Source: an uncultured bacterium (GTDB lineage Bacteria > JAJVIF01 > JAPKYR01). From it: a stretch of DNA of 64,000 nt. Below, piece after piece: positions 3,283 through 42,632 of this stretch. Below the pieces are notes generated by a model that was not told the DNA's origin, made no database searches, and saw only the letters and a list, made by a program, of their open reading frames with translations. The first letter of the stretch is position 1. Every line of letters starts with the position of its first letter. The stretch is from positions 7,201-71,200 of the forward strand of contig CBDURU010000004.1 of the NCBI GenBank assembly GCA_965369865.1, read 5' to 3'. The position numbers were made by a program, and so were the translations under genes.

Positions 3283-3440
3283 ATACCAATCTTAGATTCA
3301 GGGACGCCTTTCCATGCTTCCAGCGTTGAAGGTGTCCCGTGTAACTAAGAATTCATGGGGACACTTTCAACGCTGGAAGCATGGAAAAGCGTCCCCATGA
3401 ATTCTGGAAGCATGAAAAAGCGTCCCCATGAATTCAAAGC
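3283..3440. repeat. Dispersed intergenic repeat, expanded copy A, with a 37 bp inverted repeat (long hairpin) and a 32 bp tandem duplication
   Basis: The 33-mer TACCAATCTTAGATTCAGGGACGCCTTTCCATG and the 12-mer AATTCAAAGCGT flank about 115 bp of internal sequence here. The same two segments abut directly at 39413-39462. The insert contains GGACGCCTTTCCATGCTTCCAGCGTTGAAGGTGTCCC and its near-perfect reverse complement, plus two copies of CTGGAAGCATG(G/A)AAAAGCGTCCCCATGAATTC. Confidence 0.6.
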
Positions 3441-5749: not shown

Positions 5750-5826
5750 TCATGGATTGTAGCATTGCAGAGGGACATGGGGGAAGATTAATGTTGATGT
5801 AATTAAAAAATGGGGGAAAAATGAAT

Positions 5827-10844: not shown

Positions 10845-12365
10845 TTATCCCGACTCCACTAGAGGGCCCAGCTCATCCTCCGTGGAGTCATCCCCATCTT
10901 CCGATTCCACGTCATCCCCATCCTCTTCACCAGGAGTGTAGGCATGTACCCCAGGCGGAAAATCGGGATTTGTCCCGATCGCGTCCTCCGGCGTTTCCTG
11001 AACCCATCCAACCTCGCCGGGTACCCATACAAACCGATGCCCGCGTTCTTCGAGGACGATCCTGTCGTCTGATGACTCGATAACCGTCACTTCCGTATTG
11101 GTTTTCGGCATGACAATTGTCTCACCCTCGCGGAACCCGACTGTCCCCGCTTCGTAGATGTTACCGATGCGTACGGTCCGTACCCATTCGTTTGTATCCT
11201 GAATATGGATATCGTTCGTGATTGGTTTGACAGTCGGCTGCAAAGTGAGATCGCTCAACTGGATTTCCATGCCAAGGTCGGAACCCGTATTGCCGGCAGC
11301 CTGCGATTGATCAATAGCCCTCGACCCAAAACCACTGTCCTCTGGATATCCGGTAGTGAAAGAATCGTAATTGAACCCTGGCTGGTCATCGAATCCCGGT
11401 AACGGCTGGAGATCATCCGAATAATCGGCTGGCTGCGGCGGGACAGGGATTTCAGGTGCGGATTCACCGGCACCCGGTCCGAGAAGTGAACTACCCGTGT
11501 CAGCCGAACCTGAATACCGTGGATCGCTGGCGATCCAGTTCATGTACTGCTCCTCACGGTTGATGTCCTCTATGACATTCTGGGCTATAGAAATAATGGC
11601 ATCGTCAGATGTTTCAGAGATCAGGCGGGACAAACGCTGACGGGCGGTTCCAAGGTCGTAATTCGCGATATGGTTCAGTGCAAGGCCGAGTTCGGGAGTC
11701 GGATCGTCGGGAAGTTTCTCGAGCGCATACTGGAAATGATAAACGGCGCTTGAGAGTGCGTCCGTATCCCCATCCACGTCGAATTGTAAATCAAGAGGCC
11801 AGTTGTACGGAAGGACATCCGCAAACCGACCGACCAGGTATACCTTCAGGTTATTGGGGTCGCCGGGCGAAATGCAACCGAGATTGTAAAGACACCCAAG
11901 CGCGAGATGGCTTTCACGGTCGTCCGGGGTAATTTCGAGTTCAGCCAGGAATTTTTTAACCGCGTCGCTGCCCTGCTTATTCTCGATCGCGATTCGTCCA
12001 AGCGATGAGTATGCCCCGGGAATGTCGGGATCGAGTTCAAGTGCGACCGTGAACTGGAAAAGCGCACGATATGAATCACCGTCTATAAGGGATGCCTGCC
12101 CCATCGCGAGACGTGTACGGGCTTCGTTTTGCCTCTCCCGGGTTTTCTGCACCTGTATAAATGCGATTACCATTATGACGATAATCGCGAGAACGGCTGT
12201 TGTTCCAATTAAAGTGATACCGTTCTTTGAATCTTTTTCGGGTTCAGCCGGTTCAGGTTGCGGATGATGTTCAGTAACAAGCAGGTCGTCCTGCTCGATC
12301 GGCTCTATCGGCTCAATTGGTCTGAATACAGCTTCATCCGGGATTTTGCTTTTGTCGTTTTTCAT
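10845..12365 (-). CDS. Membrane-anchored protein with a TPR-like helical region and an acidic C-terminus
   Basis: 506 aa. A single TM helix (ITLIGTTAVLAIIVIMVIAF) follows a short N-terminal cytoplasmic segment. Next come TPR-like helical repeats (LELDPD, ALGCLYNLG, HFQYALEKLPDDP) and a D/E-rich tail. Confidence 0.5.
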   Translation of the reverse strand: MKNDKSKIPDEAVFRPIEPIEPIEQDDLLVTEHHPQPEPAEPEKDSKNGITLIGTTAVLAIIVIMVIAFIQVQKTRERQNEARTRLAMGQASLIDGDSYRALFQFTVALELDPDIPGAYSSLGRIAIENKQGSDAVKKFLAELEITPDDRESHLALGCLYNLGCISPGDPNNLKVYLVGRFADVLPYNWPLDLQFDVDGDTDALSSAVYHFQYALEKLPDDPTPELGLALNHIANYDLGTARQRLSRLISETSDDAIISIAQNVIEDINREEQYMNWIASDPRYSGSADTGSSLLGPGAGESAPEIPVPPQPADYSDDLQPLPGFDDQPGFNYDSFTTGYPEDSGFGSRAIDQSQAAGNTGSDLGMEIQLSDLTLQPTVKPITNDIHIQDTNEWVRTVRIGNIYEAGTVGFREGETIVMPKTNTEVTVIESSDDRIVLEERGHRFVWVPGEVGWVQETPEDAIGTNPDFPPGVHAYTPGEEDGDDVESEDGDDSTEDELGPLVESG

Positions 12366-13843: not shown

Positions 13844-14012
13844 GGTTCTTTATGGGATAAAGGATAGCACAATTTCCAACCTGGTGGCATACGATAAACG
13901 TGCAACGAATCCTGCGCATGATTGCGTTGTAGTGTTGCCGTTGCCCATGGAATTTTTTTTTGATTTTTTCGTTTCTCCGCAACAGTCAACAGTCTTTAAT
14001 AGTACGTGTTTG

Positions 14013-14282
14013 ACGTTTGATAATTTTCTAAAATTGTTAGCAGGCTGCTTTGTGGTCATCTATGCTGAAAGGGAAATACGTCCGGCGGTCGTGATGCGGA
14101 AGGTTATCCTGCAAAACCGCTCCAATAAAGGCGCGCATACGCAGGAGGTTTTGATGACTGTTTTCAGAACTTTGAAACTCCGCGGTCACGACCCGATCAA
14201 GACAGTCGTCTCAGCGCTGACGGATTACCTGATCACCGGCAAATTGACACCATTATCTGAATTATTTGACACAGATGGGTAA
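14013..14282 (+). pseudogene. IS66-family transposase C-terminal remnant
   Basis: The translated tail (...FDNF...AEREIRPAVVMRKVILQNRSNKGAHTQEVLMTVFRTLKLRGHDPIKTVVSALTDYL) follows the conserved IS66 TnpC C-terminal pattern (IDNN.AERAIRP..GRKNWLF.GS..G.....YSLI.T.KLNG.DP..YL..VL). No upstream transposase body is present; the fragment abuts the NtrC gene. Confidence 0.5.
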
Positions 14283-14436
14283 AGTGTTACTATAGGAAAT
14301 ACATAACCTGTCCCTGTATTTCTTTGCTAAACGCATGTATACTCCTTTGAGCATTTCTTGAGGAGACCACCCATGAAATGCCCCATGCTCTTGATTTTGT
14401 TATCATTTAAAACCACAGGCGTGAAGTATTAAAAAA

Positions 14437-15315
14437 ATGGCTGAAAACATTCGCAAATTTGAAAAAGATGGTCATCGAATTTATCATGGTGATGCCACAG
14501 TAGTTCTTAGGACTGAGATTGCATCTGATTCCATTGACTTGATCTTTCTTGATCCACCCTACAATATAGGAAAGCAATTTGCTGGGTTTCATGATAAATG
14601 GCCATCAGATAAATCCTATGCGGAATGGGCCTATGAGTGGTTGGATGAATGTATCAGAATTTTGAAGCCCAATGGTTCTTTATATGCAATGACGAGCACT
14701 CAGGCCATGCCATATTTCGATCTCTATCTGAGAGATAAATTGACAGTAATTAGCAGGATAGTTTGGCATTATGATAGTTCCGGTGTTCAAGCTAAAAGAA
14801 CATTCGGCTCACTCTACGAACCCATCCTTCATGGTGTTAAAAATCCGAAGCAATACATTTTTAATTCGGATGCAATTAAAATTGAAGCCAAAACAGGCGC
14901 ACAGCGGAAATTAATCGATTACAGGAAAGAAGTACCAACCCAATATAATACTGAGAAAGTTCCAGGCAATGTTTGGTATTTTCCTCGCGTCAGGTATCGC
15001 ATGGATGAGTACGAGAACCATCCTTCTCAGAAACCAGAAGCTTTGCTGAAAAGAATTATCCTTGCAAGCAGCAACGAAAACGGCATTGTGCTTGATCCGT
15101 TTGCAGGAACTTTTACTACCGGTGCAGTATCACGTTTATTAAATCGAAAATCTATTAGCGTGGAGTCACAAGAAGAGTACTTAATGATTGGATTGCGAAG
15201 AGTACTTAAATTGAATTCCTATAAAGATGAAGCCCTTAAATCTCCAGTAAAAGACTATTCCAAAAAGAAAACAGAAAATGAGTTGACGGGAGGCTTGTTC
15301 AATGCCATCAGTTAA
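14437..15315 (+). CDS. DNA methyltransferase, beta class (N6-adenine or N4-cytosine), the R-M modification subunit
   Basis: 292 aa. Motif IV (DPPYN) precedes motif I (LDPFAGTFTTG), the beta-class order. The gene is AT-rich relative to its neighbours. Confidence 0.85.
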   Translation: MAENIRKFEKDGHRIYHGDATVVLRTEIASDSIDLIFLDPPYNIGKQFAGFHDKWPSDKSYAEWAYEWLDECIRILKPNGSLYAMTSTQAMPYFDLYLRDKLTVISRIVWHYDSSGVQAKRTFGSLYEPILHGVKNPKQYIFNSDAIKIEAKTGAQRKLIDYRKEVPTQYNTEKVPGNVWYFPRVRYRMDEYENHPSQKPEALLKRIILASSNENGIVLDPFAGTFTTGAVSRLLNRKSISVESQEEYLMIGLRRVLKLNSYKDEALKSPVKDYSKKKTENELTGGLFNAIS

Positions 15316-16450
15316 ACATGATTTTACACAGACAATTATCCGTATCTTAGAAGAGCATTTCCCAGGTCATGGTGAGCAGTTACTAGATAACAGCGAACTG
15401 CTACAGTACATAAACATAAAGGCAAAGGCGGCTAATCGTGGATCGAAATCAAGAAGCGGCTTTGCCAATCACTATGCTATATATGTGCTGATCGAAGATT
15501 ATTTAAATCATGGATTTAATGAGAGTGACGACTACACTAAATATGAGGGAGCGCAATATAGCAGACTCTTAAACCGACAACGTGAACTTCCGTTTGGCAG
15601 CAAGCTGCAGAATCATGCCCTAAATCATAGGTTAAACGAAGAATTTCATAAATATTTCCCCACTTCTACTCATGTAATAATAATTAGAGACGTTGAAACC
15701 AGTCGCTATTGGATTAATGAAAAATTGCTGCAAGTGAAACTTGGGAAAACTGTTTATAAAATAGCACCGGCCGTTAAAGCAATTATTGATGCCTATATCG
15801 AAGCAAGGTCTAGGTCCTTCGATGAATTTATGGGTTACTGCGAAGAGATAATGAAATTAGAGAAAGATGACGCCGATAAAGCCATTGAATTTGTCAAAGG
15901 GTTATTGAAACCAAATATCGATGCGCGTATTTTTGAAATAGTCAGTTATGCAATATTGAGGGAATTTTATTCTGACCAGAAAATATATTGGGGCTGGTCA
16001 CCGGATGAAATTAATCCTGAATTCTTGGTCTTATACAAGACAGGCAGGACTAATGCTAATGATGGCGGAATCGATTTTGTGATGAAGCCTCTGGGGCGTT
16101 TTTTTCAGGTAACTGAAACAGTTGATGCAGGCAAGTATTTTCTTGATATTGATAAGGTTCAAAGATACCCGATTACTTTTGTCGTAAAAACCGAGCAGTC
16201 TGTCGAAGAAATTAAAAATAAAATCAAGGAGCAAGCTATTGAAAAATACGGGATAGTCGCTATCGTTGAGAAGTATATGACTTCGGTTGAGGAAGTAATT
16301 AATATAGCAGAGCTCATGTTAAGATTTGACGAAGTATTGAAAAATAATAAACTGCATGTGACTATTGAGGAAATTATTCTCCAGAGCAAAGTTGAATTTA
16401 ATATTGATATTGAAGATGATAGCTTGGAGGATGAATCTGAAGATCAATAG
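15302..16450 (+). CDS. Putative type II restriction endonuclease with a PD-(D/E)xK Mrr-like catalytic region
   Basis: 382 aa. It overlaps the methyltransferase by 14 nt on the same strand and is AT-rich. The C-terminal segment (TGRTNANDGGIDFVMKP...FFQVTETVDAGK) resembles the Mrr_cat signature. Confidence 0.5.
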   Translation: MPSVKHDFTQTIIRILEEHFPGHGEQLLDNSELLQYINIKAKAANRGSKSRSGFANHYAIYVLIEDYLNHGFNESDDYTKYEGAQYSRLLNRQRELPFGSKLQNHALNHRLNEEFHKYFPTSTHVIIIRDVETSRYWINEKLLQVKLGKTVYKIAPAVKAIIDAYIEARSRSFDEFMGYCEEIMKLEKDDADKAIEFVKGLLKPNIDARIFEIVSYAILREFYSDQKIYWGWSPDEINPEFLVLYKTGRTNANDGGIDFVMKPLGRFFQVTETVDAGKYFLDIDKVQRYPITFVVKTEQSVEEIKNKIKEQAIEKYGIVAIVEKYMTSVEEVINIAELMLRFDEVLKNNKLHVTIEEIILQSKVEFNIDIEDDSLEDESEDQ

Positions 16451-16664
16451 CCACTATCCTTCATCCCCCCTTTCCCCTAAAATATCCCTCAATCAACCTC
16501 CTTCTCCCAAGGAGCCCGATACCACTGCCTAAACTCCTCCTCTTCACTTTAACCATCCTCTTCGCGATTACCCTCGCATCCTGCACCGATCGCGCCGGTG
16601 CAAAAAACGATCCGCCATCCAAGGTTGAATAAGCATACGCCGGATGCGCATGTTACATTTGAGG

Positions 16665-18245
16665 TCATTCGTCCGGGTCGAGGTAGGGTTGCCAGGGGAT
16701 GTCGATGTTGAGGATCAGGCGGAGGTTTAAAAGCAATCCCGCGAACTGTTCTGGGGTGGTTTCAGAATTTTCAAATGTCGTTGTTAAAATCCAGTCATAG
16801 TAAATTTCAGTGAGGGGATCGTAATACCTGTTGGCACCCTCATGCCATAATGTAAATTCTGGCTGCATCAGGCCCCATCTGAGCAGGTCGAGAGCCGCCG
16901 CACGGTCATCGGCGGTAGTTAATTCCGGGAGCAGAATGATAAGAGCGTCGTGAATACGGAATAATTCGTCACCGGTTAATTCAGCATCGAGGAATGATGC
17001 CTGGTCCGCTGAAAATGCTGTTAGTATTCCGGAATAGAGTTTTAAAAGTTCACCGTTACTTACCAGGCGCCTCTCTTCAATATGGGAAAGCACTTTACCT
17101 TTAAGCAGCAATGCCGAATCGGTTGTTGTGAGCCATGCGTCAACCGGCATGTGAAGCATCCGGGCGATTGCGGCGAAACACAAGTCCCGTCGAACCTGCT
17201 CTGTAACATTGCTCTCGGCTTCCTGAAAAAGTGCGTTCGCCCACTGCCATGACGGCGCCCGTCCAAGAGCGTCGGCAATTACCCATGCTTCTTCGCCTTC
17301 CCCTGTTGGACCGTTTTCAAGTCCGCCGCTCATGAGGAAATCCACTATTAAATTTACATCATCATCCGTGTATGGATACATACCGCCTGAATCCCATGTG
17401 GTTCGCGCCAGGTTCCAGTACATCCATCTGTGGAAATCAGAAACCCCACCACCATCGCGATATTGTTCAAGCTCGGAGAAGACCATGTCCAGGGCGGATT
17501 GGCGTGCAAGTTGAATGGACCTGAGCGACATCGCATGAGTGAGCCGTCCGTCCCAGAATGGCTGGTCGGGAGCAAGGTCCTGGAGGCTTTCGATCTCACT
17601 GTTCCAGTCCAGAATCGCCCTGACACCGGATTCACCAGTGGCTGCGAGTGCGGTGTGAAGCCAGTCCCGCCACTGTGAAACATCATCCTGGGCAACCTCC
17701 CCAACCGGGACCTCAAGCAGATCACTCCTCGATTCGTAAAGTGAACCAAGCTGGCGAAGAATCTCCTCCGGGATGTTGTTCCGGCCAGTCTGGACAGATT
17801 CAACCCCCGCACGAGCGAATGCATAAATTGCCGTGACACCTTCAGCTATCAAATCAGAAGTCCTGGCTCTCAGTTGTTCATCATCAATAATTGCCAGGAA
17901 CCTCTCCCGATCGAACGATGTTTTTCCCTCAGCAACCTGCTTTTTCAGATCGTCATTGAGAGCCCAGTAGATATCATTCATCTCCCTGAGACGGTTGCCG
18001 AGTTCCCGATCTACTCTCTCCCCCCCTTTGTGAACCCATGCGAAATGGATAATCGGGTGGTACGGATGCGGCCAGTTAGAGATGGCAGGATCGCCGGGTA
18101 TATATTCACCGTTTTCAGAAACCCAGGCGTTGTATTGACGCTCGACATCGTCATGGAGATTTCGCAGCCTGCTTGAAAATGGATTACATGCGATGGAACT
18201 TATTACGACAGCAAGTAAAATGAGCAAGGTGGTTGTAAATCGCAT
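16665..18245 (-). CDS. Secreted hypothetical protein (signal peptide, possible lipoprotein)
   Basis: 526 aa. It has an N-terminal signal peptide (MRFTTTLLILLAVVISSIAC). No catalytic motif was recognised. Confidence 0.5.
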   Translation of the reverse strand: MRFTTTLLILLAVVISSIACNPFSSRLRNLHDDVERQYNAWVSENGEYIPGDPAISNWPHPYHPIIHFAWVHKGGERVDRELGNRLREMNDIYWALNDDLKKQVAEGKTSFDRERFLAIIDDEQLRARTSDLIAEGVTAIYAFARAGVESVQTGRNNIPEEILRQLGSLYESRSDLLEVPVGEVAQDDVSQWRDWLHTALAATGESGVRAILDWNSEIESLQDLAPDQPFWDGRLTHAMSLRSIQLARQSALDMVFSELEQYRDGGGVSDFHRWMYWNLARTTWDSGGMYPYTDDDVNLIVDFLMSGGLENGPTGEGEEAWVIADALGRAPSWQWANALFQEAESNVTEQVRRDLCFAAIARMLHMPVDAWLTTTDSALLLKGKVLSHIEERRLVSNGELLKLYSGILTAFSADQASFLDAELTGDELFRIHDALIILLPELTTADDRAAALDLLRWGLMQPEFTLWHEGANRYYDPLTEIYYDWILTTTFENSETTPEQFAGLLLNLRLILNIDIPWQPYLDPDE

Positions 18246-31920: not shown

Positions 31921-32583
31921 ATGGATAATTTTAATGGAAATCACGACAGTCCTTCCCCAACCGAAAAACCTACAGTAGAAAAACAAAGCCCACCACCAGA
32001 TTTTATAGAATTTTACAGGAATATTCCGAATGAAAATCTTAAGAAAATATTCTTGGGGGCAATCCTAGTCCTGTATTCAAAGAACGATGATAAAATTGCT
32101 TTGGCTTCACATGGTTTTAGGGAGTTCATGGACCATTTCCCTGGAGAAATGGGAAAAATTCCTTATCAATCAATAACTGACACAATTGAAGAAATTAAGA
32201 AACCAGTAAAATCATGGAAGAAATTAGGAGGAGAAACAACTAAAGAAAAAGTACTAGAATCAATGGTAGATTATTTAAATTTTTTAAATATATGGAAGGC
32301 TTTTTATAAATGGTTTGAAGGTGGATATATTGCTCAAACTGATCGATGGATCCAAGCAAGTATTAATATTGATCCATCATTGGAAGAAGTTCCGGATGAT
32401 TACCACGACAGCCAAATCAAACAAATCGTAAAATTAAAAAAATTTTTTATAGATGCGCTCCATCATAAGAAGGACCCAAGTTTTGATGAAATGATCAAAT
32501 ATATCCGATGGTTAACACGACTCTACAAACTTTTACTACAAGCAAAAAAAAATAATCTAGATAAAGAAGAAGGTGCAATATAA
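31921..32583 (+). CDS. Hypothetical Lys-rich protein, first gene of the AT-rich two-gene island
   Basis: 220 aa with no recognisable motif. Its TAA stop overlaps the ATG of the next gene (TAATG). It is strongly AT-rich relative to flanking genes. Confidence 0.5.
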   Translation: MDNFNGNHDSPSPTEKPTVEKQSPPPDFIEFYRNIPNENLKKIFLGAILVLYSKNDDKIALASHGFREFMDHFPGEMGKIPYQSITDTIEEIKKPVKSWKKLGGETTKEKVLESMVDYLNFLNIWKAFYKWFEGGYIAQTDRWIQASINIDPSLEEVPDDYHDSQIKQIVKLKKFFIDALHHKKDPSFDEMIKYIRWLTRLYKLLLQAKKNNLDKEEGAI

Positions 32584-35366
32584 TGCCTTCAAGCAAGGAT
32601 ATTTTTAAGCAAATATCTCAGCTCAATACAGACGCTGAGAAAGCATTTTTTGTGAATCAAATTTCAACGCCCGAATATTTACCTGTGCTGAGGGATCTAG
32701 GATTTTTTTCCACTCCACCCTTACCTATTAAAGATGATAAAGGCGTTAAATTTGAATTATGGTATGCATCTCGCTATCTCTTAAGAATTGCTGATAAAGC
32801 GCCTGCAGAGGTTATGGCGGTAGCGAAGGAAATTCCAGAAACTGAAAATTTTCGAGTACACGAGGATATTCTCGATATTTTAATCAAGATTCCAATCACA
32901 TTTGCCCTTGAATTTCTAACAATAGACAAAGCAAAATATTTCCTTGAGAATCCATACAATTATCAAGCTCCTGATAAGATATCTGAAATTATCAGGGGGG
33001 CCGCCCTTGCAAATCACCCTGATGAAGCTCTCAATCTTGCTGAGTTAGTATTTGTAATTACCTGGCAATCTAAATTTTCAGAATTTGACGGTGAGGAGGT
33101 TGATATTGGGAATTTATTTCCTAAATTCTTTAGATCTGGAGGAAGTTATGATTTTGAAAAACAAATTCGTGCATGCAGGATTCCCCTTATTGATTGTGCC
33201 GGATTTAAAGCTGTCAGGTTCTTTCTGGATTTACTCAGCAAAGCAATCTCTATTTCAAAAAACAAAGGCAAAACAGAATACTCGTGGGTATGGCTTCCAG
33301 CAATTGAGGAGCACGAGCAGAACGCAAGTTCAGGACTCGAAGCTGTTCTTGCAGCAAATGCAAGAGATACACTTGAGTATGTTTTCGAAATAAACCCAGT
33401 TTGGTTAGATAAAGCCCGTGAATTGCTGAGCAGATATAAGCACATTATTTTTAAGAGATTGGATTTACACATTCTAAGGCTTTTCGCTGAACAGAATAAA
33501 GCGGATGTAGTTAATCGACTTCTGGATAAGGAATTATTTAAAAATCCAGCTTGTTATCACGAGTACACACTTCTATTACATGAGCAGTATTCTAATCTCA
33601 AACCTGTGAACCAAAACAAGTTTCTCAATTTCATTGCTGAAATTGAAGGGGATTATATAGAATCTACTCAGTTTAAATGGTTGGATTTAATTAAGAATCA
33701 CCTGAAAAATAATTGGTTAAAAAAATATAAAACGTTGCAGCAAAAATATGGAGACCCTCCTTTCCCGACTTTTCTAAGTTATACAGAATCCGGACCTTGG
33801 TCAGGTCCAACTAGTCCTCTTGAAGATTTGTCCTCAATGACAGTAAAAGAAATTACTGATTTCCTTCAAACATGGAAACCTAGTGGTGAGAGGACATGGC
33901 CTCCTGAGCCATCTGCAGTAGGGTTGGGAAGGCAGCTAAAGAATGAAATTGTAGAACAACCCGTAAAATTTGCTAAAAATGCTGCAATGTTTATAGGTGT
34001 GAACCCAAAATTCCTTATACATGTCTTTTTTGGATTTCAGAATGCTGTCAAGGGCCAGGAAAAATTTGAGTGGGATAGCATCCTGGAGCTTTGCCTGACG
34101 ATAGCGAAGGGAGATTCTGGTAATTTACTTTCGGATGCAAGCACCTTATCTGAAGCCCGAAAACATGCGGCTGGCCTTTTAAAAGAAGGATTCAACAAAG
34201 GTGTGAATGAGATCCCATATAAATACAAAAAAATATCCTGGGATATCCTTGTACACCTAGCAAAAGATCCTGATCCATCACCATCTGATGAGCAAGGCTC
34301 TGGAATGGGTCCATCTCTGCAAGCCATTAACTCAGCTCGCGGCACAGCGATTGAAGCAGTAATCCTTTATGGTATTTGGCACTGGCGCAATCTCCAGGAA
34401 GTGGATAAATGGCGAGGTGTTGAATCAATACCTGAAGTTAGAGAATTACTTGAATCTCATCTCGATCCCAAAATTGACCCCTCACCCGCAATTCGCTCTG
34501 TATATGGTATATATTTCCCCTGGTTCGAAGGAATGGACAATGCCTGGGCTAAGAAAGTTGTAGATATAATATTTCCATTGGATAAAGATCAGGTACTTTT
34601 CAATGCTGCATGGGAAACATATATTTCATACAACCATGTTTATAATAATGCAGCAATGATTTTAACAACTCGGTATGAAAAGGCAATTAGGAACCTTGAA
34701 GTATTTGATAAAGATAATGTCACAATAGGTGACCCTGAAGCAAGGCTCGCAGAACACATGATAGTCATGTACGAACGAGACTTGATAGGCGAACCAGACG
34801 GAGACAGCCTATTCAAATTGTTTTGGGATTATGCACCTCTCTCTGTAAGAAAGCACGCTATTTCCTCAACAGGGATTTCTCTAAGCAATACAGAAGGTGA
34901 AGTTCCAGAACAAATAAGAGAAAAATTAATCAATCTAATCAAATTCAGGATTGGAGTATTAAAGGATAAACCACTCAATGACCGGTTTGAATTAACAGGT
35001 TTTCAGGAATGGTTTAACAGTGAGAAATTCGATATGAGTTGGGCGATTGCCAGTTTGTTAAAAATTCTAGAACTTACTGAAGGTCAACTTGAGCATGGAT
35101 GGGTAACTGTAAAAAAATTGGTTGAAATCGCAGACCAATATCCTGAGCAAGTAATTAAATGTCTTTCATTAATCCTCCTCAATGATACAAGTGGATGGGT
35201 AGTTATGGGTTCTGGAAGGGAAGTAGTCCCAGCATTATTAGAGATAAAAAATAAATCTTCGGAAATAAAGCAGCTTGTAGAAGAACTTGGTGAAAGTCTG
35301 TTTCAGCAAAAGAGATTTGAGTATGCAGATCTTATGGATAAGAGTAAACTAATAATCCCTGACTAA
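32583..35366 (+). CDS. Large hypothetical alpha-helical protein (927 aa), second gene of the AT-rich island
   Basis: Long uninterrupted ORF, AT-rich, with helical-repeat-like composition. No P-loop, nuclease or other catalytic signature was recognised. Confidence 0.5.
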   Translation: MPSSKDIFKQISQLNTDAEKAFFVNQISTPEYLPVLRDLGFFSTPPLPIKDDKGVKFELWYASRYLLRIADKAPAEVMAVAKEIPETENFRVHEDILDILIKIPITFALEFLTIDKAKYFLENPYNYQAPDKISEIIRGAALANHPDEALNLAELVFVITWQSKFSEFDGEEVDIGNLFPKFFRSGGSYDFEKQIRACRIPLIDCAGFKAVRFFLDLLSKAISISKNKGKTEYSWVWLPAIEEHEQNASSGLEAVLAANARDTLEYVFEINPVWLDKARELLSRYKHIIFKRLDLHILRLFAEQNKADVVNRLLDKELFKNPACYHEYTLLLHEQYSNLKPVNQNKFLNFIAEIEGDYIESTQFKWLDLIKNHLKNNWLKKYKTLQQKYGDPPFPTFLSYTESGPWSGPTSPLEDLSSMTVKEITDFLQTWKPSGERTWPPEPSAVGLGRQLKNEIVEQPVKFAKNAAMFIGVNPKFLIHVFFGFQNAVKGQEKFEWDSILELCLTIAKGDSGNLLSDASTLSEARKHAAGLLKEGFNKGVNEIPYKYKKISWDILVHLAKDPDPSPSDEQGSGMGPSLQAINSARGTAIEAVILYGIWHWRNLQEVDKWRGVESIPEVRELLESHLDPKIDPSPAIRSVYGIYFPWFEGMDNAWAKKVVDIIFPLDKDQVLFNAAWETYISYNHVYNNAAMILTTRYEKAIRNLEVFDKDNVTIGDPEARLAEHMIVMYERDLIGEPDGDSLFKLFWDYAPLSVRKHAISSTGISLSNTEGEVPEQIREKLINLIKFRIGVLKDKPLNDRFELTGFQEWFNSEKFDMSWAIASLLKILELTEGQLEHGWVTVKKLVEIADQYPEQVIKCLSLILLNDTSGWVVMGSGREVVPALLEIKNKSSEIKQLVEELGESLFQQKRFEYADLMDKSKLIIPD

Positions 35367-35400: not shown

Positions 35401-36120
35401 CTAACTCAACTCAAACACCAGTGTTATTGACATCGACAAAGTTTCTCGTTCTGTCTCAGGGGGGATTGGATCGAATGGAGCCGCGTTACGGACCGCATTG
35501 ATCGCCGCACTGTCAAGACGATCGAATCCAGACGATGCCGATATCGAAACCGAGGATAATTCCCCGTTGGACGCGACCATAAAATTTATAGTCGCTGTGC
35601 CTGTTTCGCCCAAACGCCGGCTGACCTGAGGGAATTCCTTAGCCGCCTGAATTTTGCTCTTAACCGAAGCGGCATAATCGGCAAGCAATGTATCAATATC
35701 GATTTCAGGTTCCGGTTCAGGAGGTGTTATAGGAATTTCGTCCGAAGAACCATCAATTTCTTCGACGGACACCTGTTCATTTTCCAAATCACCGTTTTGC
35801 ACATCATTTTCTGAAGATTCATCACCGACAGCTTCAGCTTCTATCTCTGTTGCTACCACTTCGGTAACTTCTGTAACTTGATTAACCGGTTCGGGTTCAG
35901 GCTGCGATTGCTCTCGTACCGGCTCTCTTACTGGTTCAGGAGGGATTTCCGGCTCTGGCACTATTGCCGAAGGTTCTGGCTCATTGAGAGTTATCAGAAT
36001 TTCGGTAGTGACCGGTATATTCAGCGTGTCCGGGAGTTTCACCGAAAACAAGAGAATTATGTGCACAAGGATCGAAACAACCAGCAGAACCCATCGCCAA
36101 TTTTTAAACAGTCCAGTCAT
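35401..36120 (-). CDS. tonB: TonB-family energy transducer
   Basis: 239 aa. An N-terminal TM anchor is followed by a Pro/Glu-rich spacer (EPEIPPEPVREPVREQSQPEPEP) and a C-terminal TonB domain. It lies downstream of exbB-exbD. Confidence 0.7.
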   Translation of the reverse strand: MTGLFKNWRWVLLVVSILVHIILLFSVKLPDTLNIPVTTEILITLNEPEPSAIVPEPEIPPEPVREPVREQSQPEPEPVNQVTEVTEVVATEIEAEAVGDESSENDVQNGDLENEQVSVEEIDGSSDEIPITPPEPEPEIDIDTLLADYAASVKSKIQAAKEFPQVSRRLGETGTATINFMVASNGELSSVSISASSGFDRLDSAAINAVRNAAPFDPIPPETERETLSMSITLVFELS

Positions 36121-36128
36121 GTCGCTGT

Positions 36129-36545
36129 TTATTCTTCCTGTGGGTAAATAGTAGCTTCCATCGCTATCCCTGTAATACCAGTCACACGGACAGCGTCCAT
36201 GGCGCGGATGATTTTTTCATATGACGTCGATCGATCCGCTGATATCCTCACAAGATCTATTTCATTTTTTCTTTCAGAGATTCGTGAACTCAGATCGGCC
36301 CATTCGATACGTTCGAGGTCGAGATAAAGGTTCCCCGATTCGGTGATCCTGATAGTCATACTGCGCGCGTCGGTGGAAGTCGCTGTGCTGCTTCCCGGAA
36401 GTGTCAGCTCGAGTGCCGGATTCTGAAAACTCGTCACGAGCATGAAAAAAATCAGGAGGAGAAAAACCACATCGATTAGCGGCGCGATCGGCACTACCGG
36501 TGGACTATAGCCCCTTCTCCTAGAATTTCCCCGACCGGACATCAC
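36129..36545 (-). CDS. exbD: Biopolymer transport protein ExbD/TolR
   Basis: 138 aa. It has a single N-terminal TM (PLIDVVFLLLIFFMLV) and the ExbD periplasmic domain. Confidence 0.85.
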   Translation of the reverse strand: MMSGRGNSRRRGYSPPVVPIAPLIDVVFLLLIFFMLVTSFQNPALELTLPGSSTATSTDARSMTIRITESGNLYLDLERIEWADLSSRISERKNEIDLVRISADRSTSYEKIIRAMDAVRVTGITGIAMEATIYPQEE

Positions 36546-37132
36546 GAACCCGCACCCCCCGGCCGCGATTGCTTCAGGATTCTCGTAAGTGCGCCGTGTA
36601 AATATATTTCCAGGCTTTTAATCCGGCTGTTGAAATAAAGCGCCCCGACAAGTGCCGGGATCGCGACTGTCATCCCGACCGCGGTGGTGATCAGTGCTTC
36701 CCAGATTCCGCCCGCGAGGATGGCTGGATTTACCTGCCCTGCCAGGTCCTGTATACGCTGGAAAGCCTCGATCATGCCGGTGACGGTTCCAAGGAGTCCG
36801 AGGAGCGGCGCGACCTGCGAGATTATTCCGAGCCCGTTTACATAGCGTTCCGATTCGCCCAGGTCTTTTTCGATCGCGATTTCCAGAAGGTCTTTGTCGA
36901 GATTATTTTTTTTAAGGGAATCCGTGAGAGCTTTTGCGAAATGTCCCACGGGTTCGGATTTTACACCGTTCAGGATATTTTCAACCGACGCCTTGATCCG
37001 GGGAATGGTAATCCAGAAATGGATCATGCGATCGAGGAGGAAATAGAGGCCGAGAACCGATAAGAGTAATATCGGCCAGATGAATATTCCTCCCTTGAGG
37101 AGCCAGAGTACCTGTATGTCTGATCCGGACAT
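36542..37132 (-). CDS. exbB: MotA/TolQ/ExbB proton-channel protein
   Basis: 196 aa with three TM segments and the conserved C-terminal TM region (AVGMTVAIPAL). It overlaps exbD by 4 nt. Confidence 0.85.
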   Translation of the reverse strand: MSGSDIQVLWLLKGGIFIWPILLLSVLGLYFLLDRMIHFWITIPRIKASVENILNGVKSEPVGHFAKALTDSLKKNNLDKDLLEIAIEKDLGESERYVNGLGIISQVAPLLGLLGTVTGMIEAFQRIQDLAGQVNPAILAGGIWEALITTAVGMTVAIPALVGALYFNSRIKSLEIYLHGALTRILKQSRPGGAGS

Positions 37133-37199
37133 GTCAGTGGGTCTTAATCTTCAGTTGAATACTTGTGAGTATAATGAAATGGGACGAATGCGCAATCGC

Positions 37200-37330
37200 A
37201 GGCGGGTTTTTTAAAGCGGACAAATGAAACATGCAGAATGCATGTTTGACTGGGGAGTCATGCGCAGGATGCGCATGTTACATTTTTTAAAGCGGACAAG
37301 TGAACACATGCAGAATGCGCATGTTACATA
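37200..37330. promoter_or_regulatory. Repeated palindromic elements upstream of exbB: candidate operator and promoter region
   Basis: Perfect 21 bp palindrome AAACATGCA-GAA-TGCATGTTT at 37228-37248. About 40 bp direct repeat TTTTTTAAAGCGGACAA(A/G)TGAA(A/C)ACATGCAGAATGC(GC)ATGTT, two copies. Hairpin CATGCGCA-GGA-TGCGCATG at 37259-37277. On the minus strand, TTGCGC-N16-TATACT is a promoter-like element just upstream of exbB. Confidence 0.45.
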
Positions 37331-38632
37331 TTAAAACCTGGGTTTTTTTGTAATTAAAATTACTATTGCGGCGATAATACTTGCCGCACCCGCGATCATG
37401 AACGGGGTCATCCAGGCACCGTAACCCGCGCCGCCCGATGCCAGGTCTCTGAAATATCCGGCGATCTGCGGACCTACAAGTCCACCCACACCGTACGCGG
37501 TAAACATCCAGCCATAGTTGACACCTACACTCTTATTTCCAAAATAATCCGCGGTCGCTGCAGGATAAAGTGCGAAATTACCCCCAAAGTTGAATCCTAT
37601 AATAGCAGCCATAACGAAAAGTCCGATTGCGGTGTTGCCAACATAGAAAAACGCAAGCATCGCGATCCCCTGTATCAGGCACATCAGGAAAATTGCCATT
37701 TTCCGTCCGATTTTATCCGAGATCATTCCCCAGGCGATTCGTCCAATTCCGTTGGCAAGCGAGTAAAAAACTGCCATAGCTGTACCTGCTGTCGCGGCAG
37801 CCTGTTCGGCAGTCATCCCTGTGGTCTGCAGCGAGTCGATCCCAAATAACTTGATAACACCGATCACCATCAGGCCTGCCATGGCTCCGGCGATAAAGCA
37901 GAACCAGATCATGTAGAACTGGGGGGTTTTAAGCATCTGGAACTGGTTAAATTCCACCGAACCGGTCGCCGACCCACCCGGTTCACCCGATGGTTCCGCT
38001 GGTTCCCAACCCTCAGGCTTGTATCCATCGGGTGGGTTCACCATCCAGATTGACCCAATGAGAACGGCAACCATGTAAATAATCCCAAAAATTAACCATG
38101 TTTGCGAAAGACCCAGGTTATCAATCAAATGACCCCATGATCCAGCCAGCTTGACCCATATAAGCGCACCGAAACCAAATCCTGCGACCGCGAGTCCCGT
38201 TATCATGCCTTTCTTATCCGGGAACCATTTCACGCCTACTGCGATAGGGCATACATAGGCAAGGCCGATTCCCGCACCGCCAACCAGACCCAGAAGCACT
38301 ACCTGCATGGCAAGTGATTTCCCAATGAGGCCGGCAAGGATGTATCCAATTCCAAGTACAATTCCCCCGGTTATTGAAACAATTTTCGGGCCTGCTTTTT
38401 TCTGCCAGTTCCCGGCTAAAACCATCACCACCGCGAAAGTCGCAAGGCCTATCGAAAAAGGCAGTTGGGATTGGGCTTTGGTAAAACCGTAGAGTCCTCC
38501 CTCTGCAAGAGGTTTTGTCAGCTCTGCAGTGTATGCCGACCATGCATAGATCGCTCCAAGGCACAATTGTATCAGGATCGCTCCGAGTACAACCAACCAT
38601 CTGTTCATTCCGGGTCCGGATTTCATCATCAA
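37331..38632 (-). CDS. MFS transporter, oxalate/formate antiporter (OxlT-like) family
   Basis: 433 aa with 12 predicted TM segments and the OFA-family N-terminus (RWLVVLGAILIQLCLGAIYAWS). Confidence 0.7.
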   Translation of the reverse strand: MMMKSGPGMNRWLVVLGAILIQLCLGAIYAWSAYTAELTKPLAEGGLYGFTKAQSQLPFSIGLATFAVVMVLAGNWQKKAGPKIVSITGGIVLGIGYILAGLIGKSLAMQVVLLGLVGGAGIGLAYVCPIAVGVKWFPDKKGMITGLAVAGFGFGALIWVKLAGSWGHLIDNLGLSQTWLIFGIIYMVAVLIGSIWMVNPPDGYKPEGWEPAEPSGEPGGSATGSVEFNQFQMLKTPQFYMIWFCFIAGAMAGLMVIGVIKLFGIDSLQTTGMTAEQAAATAGTAMAVFYSLANGIGRIAWGMISDKIGRKMAIFLMCLIQGIAMLAFFYVGNTAIGLFVMAAIIGFNFGGNFALYPAATADYFGNKSVGVNYGWMFTAYGVGGLVGPQIAGYFRDLASGGAGYGAWMTPFMIAGAASIIAAIVILITKKPRF

Positions 38633-38807
38633 ATCGTCCTCACTGGTAATAATTTGTCCATTCCCCCATTATTTTCAATGCTTGTGAAAATTCTAACAAG
38701 CCAAGTATAGCAAAATCCCCGCTTTTTTCAAAGCCCATTCGGCTGGATATGAAATATGGCATTTTTTCTATATATTTTCAGCCTGGTTGATGGGTCCTGC
38801 CAACCCA

Positions 38808-39104
38808 TCAGGTATCATCTAAAATTTCCGCGACAGATTTTACCTTGCCTTTAAGCATGCCTTCCGCCCCTGCCTTGTCATCAATCCAGATTTTAATGCT
38901 CACCCTCCCGGAATCCTTCCGCATCTCCAGACGGCACCGGTTAATTACATCCATAACCTCATCCCAGTCGCCTTCAATTAATGTGGACATCGCTGTTAAC
39001 TCAAAGGGCAGTCCCGATTTCTTAATAATTTTCAGGGATTTCGCCACAATATGAGAAAAGTGGGGTCCTTTGTCGAGTGGGATCATTGCGAAAGAAACGA
39101 GCAT
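38808..39104 (-). CDS. MTH1187/YkoF-family (DUF77) small protein, a putative thiamine/HMP-binding fold
   Basis: About 98 aa from the internal Met; the listed ORF extends to 39170. It shows the MxVSFxxIPLDKG...H....V...L pattern of the UPF0045/MTH1187 family. Confidence 0.55.
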   Translation of the reverse strand: MLVSFAMIPLDKGPHFSHIVAKSLKIIKKSGLPFELTAMSTLIEGDWDEVMDVINRCRLEMRKDSGRVSIKIWIDDKAGAEGMLKGKVKSVAEILDDT

Positions 39105-39361
39105 TTGTACGGTCCTCCGAAATCCAGAATTCAAAATAAATCGCAATTGAGTATACCTTATCCGTGGCATCTGATGTTAAAAGGGCTCGTTAAGGCAGAA
39201 GGAAGGACGTAGATTCCGGGACACCTCAAATCGCACACATTTGATGGTGTCCCGGTTTCGATCTCCAATCCGTTTAAAGCCCTAGACTGACTGGATATGT
39301 CCATCAGTCGGGAGAACCTGAATCTGAATTTGAAAAGTCCATCCTGTATATACTTAATGCA

Positions 39362-39400
39362 AAGCCCCCGGTTCCCACAACCGGGGGTGATTTTTTTCTT
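39362..39400 (+). terminator. Rho-independent terminator on the plus strand, with a T-run only on the plus side
   Basis: AAAGCCCCCGGTT-CCCAC-AACCGGGGGTGA is followed by TTTTTTT. Upstream at 39181-39285 there is a 16 bp near-perfect hairpin (CCGGGACACCTCAAAT...ATTTGATGGTGTCCCGG) enclosed by the closing stem AGGGCT/AGCCCT. Confidence 0.5.
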
Positions 39401-39412
39401 CCCATAATGAGT

Positions 39413-39462
39413 AATACCAATCTTAGATTCAGGGACGCCTTTCCATGAATTCAAAGCGTGTA
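39413..39462. repeat. Dispersed intergenic repeat, compact copy B
   Basis: TACCAATCTTAGATTCAGGGACGCCTTTCCATGAATTCAAAGCGT matches the two ends of the element at 3283-3440 but lacks the internal inverted-repeat insert. Confidence 0.6.
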
Positions 39463-39829
39463 AGGCCAATGCCGTTAAATAAAAATTGATAGGACATATT
39501 TAGTATTGATGTACGTCGTACACTTACATTTGGGAATGATTCAGGATTTTTTTGAAGATCGGGGACACCTGCTTTTCGACGGGCGAAAAGAGATGTCCCC
39601 AGTATTAGCAGACGAACTCAGGCTTGCGGGATGGAGATGTCTCACTCGGCTTGCCGACGCCACGCGATTAGGCCGCCGCCATGCGTTTATAATTCTACGG
39701 TCGTTAAAATTACCCTTGTATCACCGTCACCATTCGGGTATGTTTTAGAATTATTGTTTGGATAGTTTTGTAAGTCATTGGCCTCCCCCCCTTAATCCCC
39801 CCCGCAAGCGGTGGGGAGGTATGGTGTTT

Positions 39830-39985
39830 GTCCTTTAATTGTAACGCAGGCAGCTTGCCTGCAGTACCGCGGACAGCTTGTCCTTTAATTGTAACGCAGG
39901 CAGCTTGCCTCCAGTACCGCGGACAGCTTGTCCTTAAATTGTAACGCAGGCAGCTTGCCTGCAGTACCGCGGACAGCTTGTCCGC
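39830..39985. repeat. Three tandem 50 bp direct repeats, each carrying two short hairpins, abutting the alaS start
   Basis: Unit GTCCTTTAATTGTAACGCAGGCAGCTTGCCTGCAGTACCGCGGACAGCTT repeats three times with 2 mismatches in total. Each unit carries hairpins GCAGGCA-GCT-TGCCTGC and GGACA-GCT-TGTCC. A GC-rich inverted repeat (CCTCCCC...GGGGAGG) precedes the array at 39783-39818. Confidence 0.85.
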
Positions 39986-42632
39986 ATCAAAGGAACTAAA
40001 AGTGGAAACATCCAGGCTCAGATCGCTTTTCCTCGACTTCTTCAAGTCAAAGGATCACCACATAGAACCGTCCGCAAGCCTTGTCCCCTCAGCGGATGAT
40101 AAATCGCTTCTGTTAATCAACGCGGGAATGGCGCCGCTCAAGCCTTACTTCACCGGATTGCAGGCACCCCCGTCCACACGTATCGCTTCGTGCCAGCGAT
40201 GTCTTCGCACAAATGACATTGATGAGGTCGGTCGAACACCCCGTCATCTGACCATGTTTGAAATGCTCGGTAATTTCTCCTTCGGCGATTATTTCAAAGA
40301 GGAGATAATCATATGGAGCTGGGAATTTATCACGGACTGGTTGAAAATCCCGGTCGAGAAGCTCAGGATCAGCGTTCACGAAAAAGACGATGAGGCTTTT
40401 TCAATCTGGGAAAAGGAGGTCGGTGTTCGCTCGGACTGGATTTACCGGCTAGGCGACGAGGATAACTTCTGGTTCATGGCCGACACAGGTCCATGCGGGC
40501 CTGACAGTGAAATTTTCTATGACATTGGCGAGGAACTTGGTCCCGACCAGACACCCGCTAAAGATGGGGATCGATGGGTGGAAATCTGGAACCTGGTTTT
40601 TACGCAGTTTGACCGCCAGGCCGACGGAACTCTCGTGCCACTGCCGAAAAAAAATGTCGACACGGGAATGGGTCTTGAAAGAACAGCGATGGCATTGCAG
40701 GGAAAACATTCCGTGTTTGAAGTGGATATATTCAAGCCAATTTCAGACTTTTATAAAACCGAGACTAAAAAGGAAATTCTCGAATCCGAAAGTTATATTT
40801 CGGCTGGTGTTAACTCGCTGTATGTGGTGTCGGACCACATCCGGGCGGTCTCGATGCTCCTCGCGGACGGAGTGCACCCGGGGAACGAGGGCAGGGGTTA
40901 TATACTCCGGAGAATCCTTCGACGGGCGCTTGTCCATTTGCGCCGCCTTGGCCGGCATGAAGGCGGACTTATTAAAGCGTTCCCGATTGTACTCGATCAG
41001 CTTGGGGAAACATATCCACTTTTACTTGAGCGCAGAGACCACATCGCAAATTTAATCCGGCACGAGGAGCAGAATTTCCTGAAAACCCTCGATGCCGGTG
41101 TCCAGCGATTGGAAAATGCGATAGAGAGTGTCGGGGATGAGAAAATCCTGCCGGGTGAAATAGCATTCGAGATGTTCGACACTTACGGCGTCCCGCTTGA
41201 TGTCACAATCGAAATGGCCCAGGCAAGGGGAATGGAAGTCGATGTGGTCAGCTACACTGACGCACTGGAAACCGCACGGAGGATATCCCGCGAGGTCACG
41301 GATGAGACGCTTGACGCCGATAACGCCGCTCGCCAGGCTGTGAAAACCACCGATGAAACTGAATTCATTGGCTATGATTTCTATCGCGAAACGTCATCTC
41401 TCATTGAATTCGATCCCGCGCACAATTTCATCGTAATCGAAAAAACTCCGTTTTATGCCGAAATGGGTGGTCAGACCGGGGATACGGGCGCACTGCGGTT
41501 TAAGGATGGGGAATTCAAAGTTACCGGCACCCAGATTGTCGGCAATGTTGTCGTCCATAAAATCGATCCCGAAAAGACTACCGGCGATCCATCAAATCTG
41601 AAACCCGGCGATCCAATCGAAGCGATTGTCGATATCGATAGAAGGCTTGGAATCCAGAGAGCGCATACCGGGACTCATCTACTTCATGCAGCCTTAAGGG
41701 TTGTCCTTGGCGATCATGTGCAGCAGGCGGGATCGGCGGTCGAGCCGGATCGATTCCGCTTCGATTTCACCCATTTCCAACCGCTTACAAGGGAGGAAAC
41801 CCGAAAAATAGAGGACTGGGCGAACGAGCGGGTATTCGCGGAACATGACGTGTTTACCAGGGATGTTTCGTACGATGATGCGATCGAGGCAGGCGCGATT
41901 GCATTGTTCGGCGAAAAATATCCCGAAACTGTCCGGATGGTCTGGATCGGCGGACGTGAGACTGAGCCAGTTCCAGGGCAGGTTCAATCGACCGAGCTTT
42001 GCGGCGGCACGCATGTAAAAAACACAGGTGTCATCGGGCTGATAAAAATTGTTGGGGAGGAATCGATAGCAAGCGGCGTACGGCGGATCGAGGTTTTGAC
42101 GGGTCGTCGATCGTACGAATTTATGCAGGATGAGGACATGACACTTCATCATATTTCAGACGCGATGCACATGCCCATCCAGCACCTCGAACGCGGGGTC
42201 CGGAAGCATCTCGAAATACAGAAACGCCTGGAGAGGGAAGTCAGGGATCTCGAATCGAAGCTGATTTCAGGTGAGGGCGGCGGAGCGTTCGAAGATTTCA
42301 CATCGGGTGACATTAAAGCCAGGATATACCCGTTACAATCTCTCGCGCCCGATGCGGTCGCGAAATTGCTCGATAAAGCAGTGGAGGAGGATCGGGTTCA
42401 CATCGCGTTCGCTGTCACCGACCATGATGGCAAGGGAACGTTGATGATCCGTTGTTCCGACGAAGCGATAAAAGCCGGACTGCATGCGGGGAATTTCGTG
42501 AAGAAGGTCGCGGGTGCCATGGGGGGCCGTGGTGGAGGAAAGCCGTCATTCGCCCGTGGCGGCGTGGACGCATCCCGCTACGAAGAAGGTTCTCTGGCAT
42601 ACCGCGATGTTTTAACAGGCGGAATTAACTGA
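39978..42632 (+). CDS. alaS: Alanine--tRNA ligase
   Basis: 884 aa. Class II catalytic motifs are near the N-terminus (FLDFFKSKDH, LLLINAGMAPLKPYF). The editing domain has HTGTHLLH and a zinc site (CGGTHV), and the C-terminal DHHA1-like domain is present. The listed start is TTG at 39978 inside the last tandem repeat; GTG at 40002 is an equally plausible start. Confidence 0.9.
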   Translation: MSASKELKVETSRLRSLFLDFFKSKDHHIEPSASLVPSADDKSLLLINAGMAPLKPYFTGLQAPPSTRIASCQRCLRTNDIDEVGRTPRHLTMFEMLGNFSFGDYFKEEIIIWSWEFITDWLKIPVEKLRISVHEKDDEAFSIWEKEVGVRSDWIYRLGDEDNFWFMADTGPCGPDSEIFYDIGEELGPDQTPAKDGDRWVEIWNLVFTQFDRQADGTLVPLPKKNVDTGMGLERTAMALQGKHSVFEVDIFKPISDFYKTETKKEILESESYISAGVNSLYVVSDHIRAVSMLLADGVHPGNEGRGYILRRILRRALVHLRRLGRHEGGLIKAFPIVLDQLGETYPLLLERRDHIANLIRHEEQNFLKTLDAGVQRLENAIESVGDEKILPGEIAFEMFDTYGVPLDVTIEMAQARGMEVDVVSYTDALETARRISREVTDETLDADNAARQAVKTTDETEFIGYDFYRETSSLIEFDPAHNFIVIEKTPFYAEMGGQTGDTGALRFKDGEFKVTGTQIVGNVVVHKIDPEKTTGDPSNLKPGDPIEAIVDIDRRLGIQRAHTGTHLLHAALRVVLGDHVQQAGSAVEPDRFRFDFTHFQPLTREETRKIEDWANERVFAEHDVFTRDVSYDDAIEAGAIALFGEKYPETVRMVWIGGRETEPVPGQVQSTELCGGTHVKNTGVIGLIKIVGEESIASGVRRIEVLTGRRSYEFMQDEDMTLHHISDAMHMPIQHLERGVRKHLEIQKRLEREVRDLESKLISGEGGGAFEDFTSGDIKARIYPLQSLAPDAVAKLLDKAVEEDRVHIAFAVTDHDGKGTLMIRCSDEAIKAGLHAGNFVKKVAGAMGGRGGGKPSFARGGVDASRYEEGSLAYRDVLTGGIN

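Follow-up and report, generated by a model that had tools for sequence, protein, structure and literature searches.

Palindromes between a transporter gene and exbB in an uncultured bacterium are probably copies of a dispersed REP/BIME/REPIN-type family

Here we report that the palindromes upstream of the exbB-exbD-tonB operon in an uncultured bacterium (GTDB lineage Bacteria; JAJVIF01; JAPKYR01) are probably, with a likelihood that we put at about 0.78, copies of a dispersed family of extragenic palindromes of the REP (repetitive extragenic palindrome), BIME (bacterial interspersed mosaic element) and REPIN (REP doublet forming a hairpin) type, and not part of the regulation of exbB. The DNA examined, referred to here as the window, is a stretch of 64,000 nt of contig CBDURU010000004.1 (GenBank assembly GCA_965369865.1), positions 7,201 to 71,200 of the forward strand; coordinates are those of the window unless a related locus (L001 to L025) is named. 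An earlier note on this DNA had put forward the palindrome as a candidate operator for a metal-responsive or other dimeric repressor of the TonB system, and had offered a family of short repeats or a common 3′-end motif as a fallback. It is the fallback that comparison with other genomes bears out: the palindromes form a dispersed family that strongly favours the few nucleotides directly following a stop codon. The kind of element is already known; what we describe is a REP-type family with an unrelated stem sequence in uncultured bacteria.

Results

Hairpin units in the MFS-exbB spacer

The units lie on the minus strand in the 198-nt spacer (37133-37330) between the stop codon of a major facilitator superfamily (MFS) transporter gene, at 37331, and the ATG of exbB, at 37132. 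Along the coding strand, the spacer leads from the stop codon through 1 nt, unit a, a linker, unit b, a short spacer, unit c and a further linker to the exbB promoter, and each unit combines a head, ATGTAAC (degenerate in unit c), with an 8-bp stem and a 3-nt loop. Unit b (37254-37287) is the canonical copy, with the head ATGTAAC followed by a perfect 8-bp stem, CATGCGCA/TGCGCATG, around the loop TCC (GGA on the plus strand). This perfect hairpin, CATGCGCA-GGA-TGCGCATG at 37259-37277, was overlooked in the earlier note; the 19-mer GGATGCGCATGTTACATTT to which that note had drawn attention is the loop, 3′ arm and tail of the same hairpin as read on the plus strand (37267-37285). The 19-mer does recur exactly at 16642-16660, and with two mismatches at 37313-37331, giving three matches where 0.04 were expected; 100 shuffles never gave as many. 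Unit b folds at -11.8 kcal/mol as RNA (z -5.2) and at -9.6 kcal/mol as DNA (z -7), and scores 48.3 bits (E=2e-11) against R1, a covariance model that we built from 13 units of the family.

The other two units depart from this form in different ways. Unit a (37300-37333) abuts the MFS stop codon, its head ATGTAAC lying 1 nt past the stop, and forms the imperfect hairpin CATGCGCA-TTC-TGC--ATG; on the plus strand it contains the two-mismatch variant of the 19-mer, and it is matched by the covariance model at 26.8 bits (E=5e-5) with an RNA hairpin of -7.4 kcal/mol. Unit c (37227-37247) is a perfect 9-3-9 palindrome, AAACATGCA-GAA-TGCATGTTT, and is a variant of the unit without the central GC of each arm (RNA -9.0 kcal/mol, z -3.0). 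It is the 21-bp palindrome of the earlier note, which is present exactly as described there and had no match in shuffled sequence. Linker copy 1 (37283-37304, minus strand, TTCACTTGTCCGCTTTAAAAAA) joins units a and b, and linker copy 2 (37207-37228, minus strand, TTCATTTGTCCGCTTTAAAAAA) follows unit c; a repeat search placed their identity at 95%. Direct repeats of about 40 bp had been said to contain the palindrome. A 22-nt core, TTTTTTAAAGCGGACAARTGAA, does occur at 37207 and 37283 with 95% identity and is followed each time by a variant of the palindrome, copy 1 being the second occurrence; the longer repeat is approximate only, the second palindrome being imperfect and carrying a 2-nt indel. 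All the sequence features listed in the earlier note lie at, or within 1 nt of, the positions given there. Inspected by eye, GGATGCGCAT...ATGTTACAT is reminiscent of a dif/Xer site, a likeness that we rejected when no 11-6-11 register could be made to fit.

Structure and placement of the family

Applied to the window and the related loci described below (121 kb in total), the covariance model returned 24 significant units; within the window it found no significant copy beyond those of the spacer and a unit at 16629-16662. Across the 24 units, standard pairs fill 95.5% of 176 stem cells, covariation is seen at two stem positions (U-A/C-G and A-U/G-C), and the pairing is destroyed when the 3′ partner is shifted by one column, as fits a short palindrome able to form a stem-loop. 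The loop is purine-rich on the tail strand (RRA, or TYY on the head strand), with a tail of YTAC or CCAC. All copies from the window, L004, L017, L018 and L023 have the head GTAA, and those of L024 and L025 have GTAG or GTGG, with tails CTAC and CCAC. Single units fold at -7 to -12 kcal/mol as RNA, and inverted doublets form a single long hairpin, with -29.5 kcal/mol (z -9.1) for L025 6698-6776 and -28 kcal/mol (z -6.0) for L024 12958-13046.

All units lie between open reading frames (ORFs), and where a stop codon is overlapped, in two genes, it is by the head alone, whose TAA or TAG is then the stop codon itself. Of seven independent loci, five have the hairpin foot 0-12 nt past a stop codon, head first. 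Roughly four to five G-U wobble events favour the strand that reads hairpin-TTAC, the 16642 unit favours the other strand, and all of the changes are CpG-to-TpG transitions; because that unit runs opposite to the others and every stem change is a CpG transition, we draw no inference as to which strand is active. A search of Rfam 15 gave no match at the gathering threshold in the window, and nothing relevant at E<=1 in 36900-40100.

Copy number varies at orthologous spacers and the exbB promoter does not

Homologues of ExbB led us to six orthologous loci (L016-L021) with the gene order MFS-exbB-exbD-tonB, and these show that the presence and the number of units differ at the same site among close relatives. 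The window carries three units; L017 and L018, whose ExbB proteins are 92% and 93% identical to that of the window, carry two each; and L016, with an ExbB that is likewise 92% identical, carries none in a spacer of 72 nt. Two more distant loci, L019 (69%) and L020 (68%), also have no unit and instead have a canonical terminator after the MFS gene. The counts in the spacer are thus 3, 2, 2, 0, 0 and 0, and the difference between L016 and L017 (none against two) arises despite an identical ExbB protein (P0003). Only units b and c occur in L017 and L018, which keep linker copy 2 and from which unit a is missing.

The promoter of exbB follows a different pattern. The earlier note had pointed out a -35/-10-like sequence on the minus strand, and it is present at 37168-37195 with a -35 box TTGCGC (37195 to 37190), a 16-nt spacer and a -10 box TATACT (37173 to 37168). 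Conservation supports it: TATACTCA is invariant in six orthologous loci, the unit-free L016 included, and the -35 box is TTGCGC or TTGCGA, with TT.CG kept throughout. None of the palindromes overlaps the promoter, the closest of them ending 31 nt upstream of its -35 box. Judged by this conservation, the exbB promoter is independent of the repeat units: since it is conserved whether or not units are present, the palindromes are dispensable to it, and they vary between lineages that are nearly identical. An operator would not be expected to show such dispensability and variability, which argues that the units are not one.

Two further observations concern this region. The 10-mer TTGCGCATTC (37190-37199), which holds the -35 box of exbB, is identical to the left arm and loop of unit b′ in L017 and L018, and it brackets exactly the 80 nt that are missing from L016; either recombination between TTGCGCATTC 10-mers removed the units of L016, or the promoter region itself derives from an old half unit. 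The L016 spacer could be an empty site or the product of a deletion between the 10-mers, the head sequence also being missing or diverged there. In L018 (around 265-280), the exbB leader lacks 22 nt that are shared by the window, L016 and L017, and about 9 nt remain between TATACTCA and the ATG, which could reflect a nearly leaderless transcript or an assembly artefact.

The same unit in other organisms and contexts

A scan of 185,579 species genomes with the pattern GRATGCGCATGTTACATWT gave three matches, of which one, L004, is clearly homologous, and the same scan of a metagenome collection gave ten, of which one, L006, is real. The remaining matches (L003, L005, L007-L015) contain the 19-mer without the left arm, mostly in apparent coding sequence, and were treated as chance occurrences. 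L004 comes from a metagenome-assembled genome (MAG) labelled Planctomycetota, in which two tandem units, CATGCGCA-GAA-TGCGCATG-TTACAT and CATGTGCA-GAA-TGTGCATG-TTAGAT, start 3 nt past the stop codon of the enolase gene and are followed by a separate canonical terminator. Equal ORF lengths (927 and 239 aa) had suggested synteny between L004 and the window, and this was discarded when BLASTP showed no homology. Next to the units and terminator of L004, at 5660-5900, lies a duplication of about 120 nt with GGTGACTC...GAGTCACC hairpins, in sequence unrelated to the present family.

By way of an adjacent protein, the L006 locus was recovered at greater length as L024, together with L025, a relative at 89%. 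Here the units are far more numerous. The spacer between a periplasmic binding-protein gene and an ATP-binding cassette (ABC) ATPase gene in L024 contains one inverted doublet and six tandem 37-nt units, and the FecCD permease gene is followed by 89-nt doublets, at least four in tandem, that read GTAG-CATGCGCA-TCT-TGCGCATG...CATGCGCG-GGA-CGCGCATG-CTAC; the arrays measure 5.7 copies of 37 nt and 3.7 copies of 89 nt. L025 has one doublet at the first of these sites, so that the spacer between the binding protein and the ATPase holds two units against seven in L024, and a half unit at the second, with a symmetric single unit and a degenerate doublet elsewhere. One unit of L025 follows a canonical terminator, and the units at 11244-11320 lie in a divergent promoter region. 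Overall, L024 has two clusters with at least 15 units in 13 kb, and L025 has four loci in 17 kb.

In both sequences the Peripla_BP_2/ABC_tran/FecCD operon is preceded by a cobalamin riboswitch (RF00174, 57-64 bits), at 9587-9714 in L024 and 5475-5602 in L025, and the transporter is probably a B12 importer. Since the riboswitch precedes the operon, regulation of the operon is accounted for.

A second locus in the window at the edge of a restriction-modification island

The other exact occurrence of the 19-mer had been placed immediately 3′ of another minus-strand gene, and it does lie there, in a single degenerate unit (16629-16662, minus strand, ATGTAAC-ATGCGCA-TCC-GGCGTATG) 6 nt past the stop codon of a 526-aa gene (16665-18245). 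The covariance model matches this unit at 39.8 bits (E=7e-9), and it folds at -10.2 kcal/mol as RNA on the sense strand of the gene. L022 and L023 contain orthologues of this gene in which TGA-N6-ATGTAACATGC is retained, and inside the hairpin both diverge from the window and from each other.

The divergence coincides with an insertion. Relative to L022, the window contains an additional low-GC island of 2.8 kb (13870-16647, GC 0.39), and the blastn breakpoints (L022 3928|3945, corresponding to window 16648|13869) show that the island ends on one side within the unit, at 16648, in the middle of the hairpin. In L023 this site is occupied by another insert, which has a 48-nt stretch in common with the island of the window (14016-14063). 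As the synteny of three relatives breaks inside this unit, we conclude that it is a breakpoint for rearrangement or island insertion. The island encodes a DNA methylase (14437-15315; PF01555, N6/N4) and carries a weak remnant of an IS66-like transposase at about 13989-14282 (E=0.007, below threshold). A 382-aa ORF at 15302-16450 overlaps the methylase ORF and has no Pfam match; it is possibly a restriction enzyme. At the other end of the island, at about 13893-13920, there is perhaps a weak degenerate unit in the opposite orientation, undetected by the covariance model, and its pairing with the unit at 16629-16662 as a doublet across the island is speculative.

Neighbouring genes and further repeats

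The MFS gene occupies 37331-38632 (PF07690, E=3.6e-45), and the operon downstream of the units consists of exbB (36542-37132, PF01618), exbD (36129-36545, PF02472) and tonB (35401-36120, PF03544), all on the minus strand. A related array of three 50-nt units with the stem GCAGGCA-GCT-TGCCTGC lies on the plus strand at 39828-39983, ending 18 nt upstream of alaS (about 40002); Tandem Repeats Finder gave a period of 50, 3.1 copies and 97% matches, and the array folds at -20.9 kcal/mol. It has the TGTAAC head and the TTGTCC/TTTAA linker in the arrangement seen at the exbB locus (TTGTCC..TTTAA..TGTAAC, compared by eye), with a different stem, and its number also varies, from three units in the window to one in L016. 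The array appears to belong to the same repeat system, as a second class of stem, and is situated in the leader or promoter region of alaS.

The source genome contains several palindromic repeat families in its intergenic regions. A further one includes a 38-nt repeat, 97% identical between 3279-3316 and 39410-39447, a 31-nt tandem duplication and several hairpins of the GGGGACACC...GGTGTCCCC type (other positions 3373-3434, 39219-39255 and about 39585-39630), a similar hairpin being found in the MFS-exbB spacer of L020. Convergent with tonB, at 31921-35366 on the plus strand, are adjacent ORFs of 220 and 927 aa without a Pfam match, in the region of lowest GC in the window (0.36-0.42). This pair of ORFs also occurs in L001 and L002, and may be a foreign island.

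Discussion

The units described here share the defining properties of REPs, which are short, form stem-loops, are extragenic and are highly similar to one another (PMC12306157). As with the REPs and BIMEs of E. coli and other Proteobacteria, the unit is a short imperfect palindrome that forms a stem-loop outside genes and varies in copy number between relatives. It also occurs singly, in tandem and in alternating orientation, with many copies within 15 nt of a stop codon; E. coli REPs at that distance are described as stalling terminating ribosomes and lowering expression (Liang et al. 2015, as summarised in PMC12306157). A conserved tetranucleotide marks the foot of the hairpin in both, being GTAG in E. 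coli, where it is bound by TnpA-REP (PMC3479197), GTAG or GTGG in L024 and L025, and GTAA in the window. The resemblance extends to the REPINs of Pseudomonas fluorescens SBW25, which are inverted doublets that form long hairpins and occur in tandem clusters that include flanking sequence (PMC3116915): in L024 and L025 inverted units separated by about 25-30 nt form one long hairpin and are repeated in tandem with their flanks, and the single units of the window resemble the REP singlets that have been proposed to be decayed remnants (PMC3116915). The family is nevertheless distinct from those of Proteobacteria. Its stem (CATGCGCA/TGCGCATG, 8 bp with a 3-nt loop and no internal bulge) is unrelated to theirs, its head in the lineage of the window is GTAA, and its closest named carrier is the MAG labelled Planctomycetota.

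Several observations weigh against this assignment. The exact 19-mer pattern is very rare in both of the large collections, and the source genome shows just two loci (four units) in about 70 kb, an extension of the source contig by 5.6 kb having revealed no further unit. The three units of the spacer are all in direct orientation and partly decayed, and no REPIN doublet occurs among the units of the window. The head GTAA is not the classical GT[AG]G; its position is kept and its fourth base differs. No gene for a REP-associated tyrosine transposase (RAYT; PF01797, a Y1 HUH transposase) was found among the ORFs of the window that were scanned, nor among the ORFs of unknown function in L024 and L025 or in the Pfam lists precomputed for the loci retrieved, a search that covered about 200 kb of several genomes, in which a single copy per genome would easily be missed. 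This sets the family apart from the REPIN-RAYT system of SBW25, as does the lack of a doublet in the window itself. Finally, the effects on the MFS transcript that we consider below are drawn from analogy with E. coli.

Among the alternatives, the proposal that the palindromes bind a dimeric, perhaps metal-responsive, repressor of exbB-exbD-tonB is the one that the position of the units first suggests: perfect or near-perfect palindromes stand upstream of a TonB operon, the binding-protein/ABC operon of L024 and L025 is also an uptake system, and the -35 region TTGCGCATTC resembles the left arm and loop of a unit. Against these stand the spacers of L016, L019 and L020, which have no unit, the first of them with a 92% identical ExbB and the same promoter, and the variation of the copy number among 0, 2 and 3. 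The units begin 1 nt past the MFS stop codon and remain at least 31 nt from the -35 box, they are found 3′ of enolase and of the 526-aa gene as well (in all, after unrelated genes in three other contexts or organisms), and in L024 seven tandem copies lie within an operon that is under riboswitch control. On these comparative sequence data we consider the operator reading largely refuted, and an operator function very improbable. A lineage-specific terminator or stabiliser of mRNA 3′ ends, selected at the ends of genes without any spreading or amplification of a family, would explain why units lie within 12 nt of a stop codon in five of seven loci, and why the spacer of the window has no canonical terminator on the coding strand at the place where L019 and L020 have one; unit b with TTACATTTTT is moreover flagged as terminator-like on the plus strand. 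Yet no U-run follows the hairpin on the coding strand, where no minus-strand terminator site was found in 37133-37330, the tails of the aligned copies are not rich in U, and the T-run on the other strand is not conserved among copies. Units precede a separate terminator in L004 and follow one in L025, some lie in divergent promoter regions (L025 11244-11320) or, as with the 50-nt array, upstream of alaS, and arrays of six to seven tandem units and of 89-nt doublets exceed what termination needs. The occurrence of near-identical sequence in unrelated contexts, together with the inverted doublets, indicates copying and not convergence, and we regard this explanation as unlikely.

Two further readings we hold to be extremely improbable. 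One would make the units attC-like sites of an integron, with the flanking genes and the restriction-modification island as its cassettes. The attC consensus is RYYYAAC/GTTRRRY and the length of the sites is about 57-141 nt. The likeness lies in an imperfect palindrome at the 3′ ends of genes, in the core-like head ATGTAAC and tail GTTACAT of the window variant, which fit the attC core at six of seven positions, and in the island joined at one copy; L025 even has a gene of the Phage_integrase family 1.1 kb upstream of the riboswitch and operon. Single units are too short for attC, however, at about 31 nt, and mostly have one core only. The AAC/GTT triplets are not conserved across the family, being lost in L024 and L025 (heads AGC/GGC, tails GCTAC/GCCAC), the arrays of 37-nt period hold no ORFs or cassettes, and the island boundary falls in the centre of the hairpin rather than in GTT; the window ORFs that were compared with Pfam include no integrase gene. 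The other reading supposes a small or antisense RNA encoded on the plus strand of the spacer and terminated at unit b, where CATGCGCAGGATGCGCATG followed by TTACATTTTT is terminator-like, and several stem variants are indeed G-U wobbles on the plus strand alone. That wobble bias is not decisive, given that the 16642 unit is more stable on the opposite strand; no plus-strand promoter was predicted upstream, Rfam gave no match even at E<=1, the plus strand of the spacer folds no better than its shuffles (z -1.3), and the entire segment is absent from L016.

If the palindromes are a REP-type family, as we think probable, the three direct units of the spacer would most likely have arisen by local duplication or unequal recombination, and the unit after the 526-aa gene would be a fourth, decaying copy. 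Spread of such units would be expected, as for others of this class, to depend on a RAYT-type (IS200/IS605-like) tyrosine transposase acting on single-stranded hairpins. REPs stabilise upstream mRNA. Transcribed into the MFS message, the units of the window would give three stem-loops, the first about 7 nt past the stop codon. By analogy with E. coli REPs, these would shield the 3′ end of that message from exonucleases; they could also dampen read-through into exbB and, at no more than 15 nt from the stop codon, hinder ribosomes that terminate there. In DNA, the palindromes may be preferred places of rearrangement, as the restriction-modification island (13870-16647) is joined to the chromosome within one of them. 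A more ambitious version would see here an undescribed REP/REPIN family outside Proteobacteria, served by an unseen RAYT, in which the GTAA/GTAG head is used as, or targeted to, the upstream stop codon, so that elements inserted or selected at translation stops would, throughout the uncultured lineage, link the end of translation to what becomes of the mRNA, and would also give defence islands, such as the one at 13870-16647, a place to dock; this we consider rather improbable.

On a practical level, annotation of the palindromes as an operator of the TonB system, Fur-like or other, should be avoided, which removes a false lead. The analysis documents the family in poorly known uncultured bacteria, and the covariance model R1 can be used for counting copies, for seeking the partner transposase and for strain typing. 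Ideas about the roles of REPs in translation termination and genome rearrangement have so far come mainly from E. coli and Pseudomonas, and the tight association of the present units with stop codons, together with an island boundary that lies inside one unit, provides concrete cases in which these roles may be studied, the boundary being a single case of the latter.

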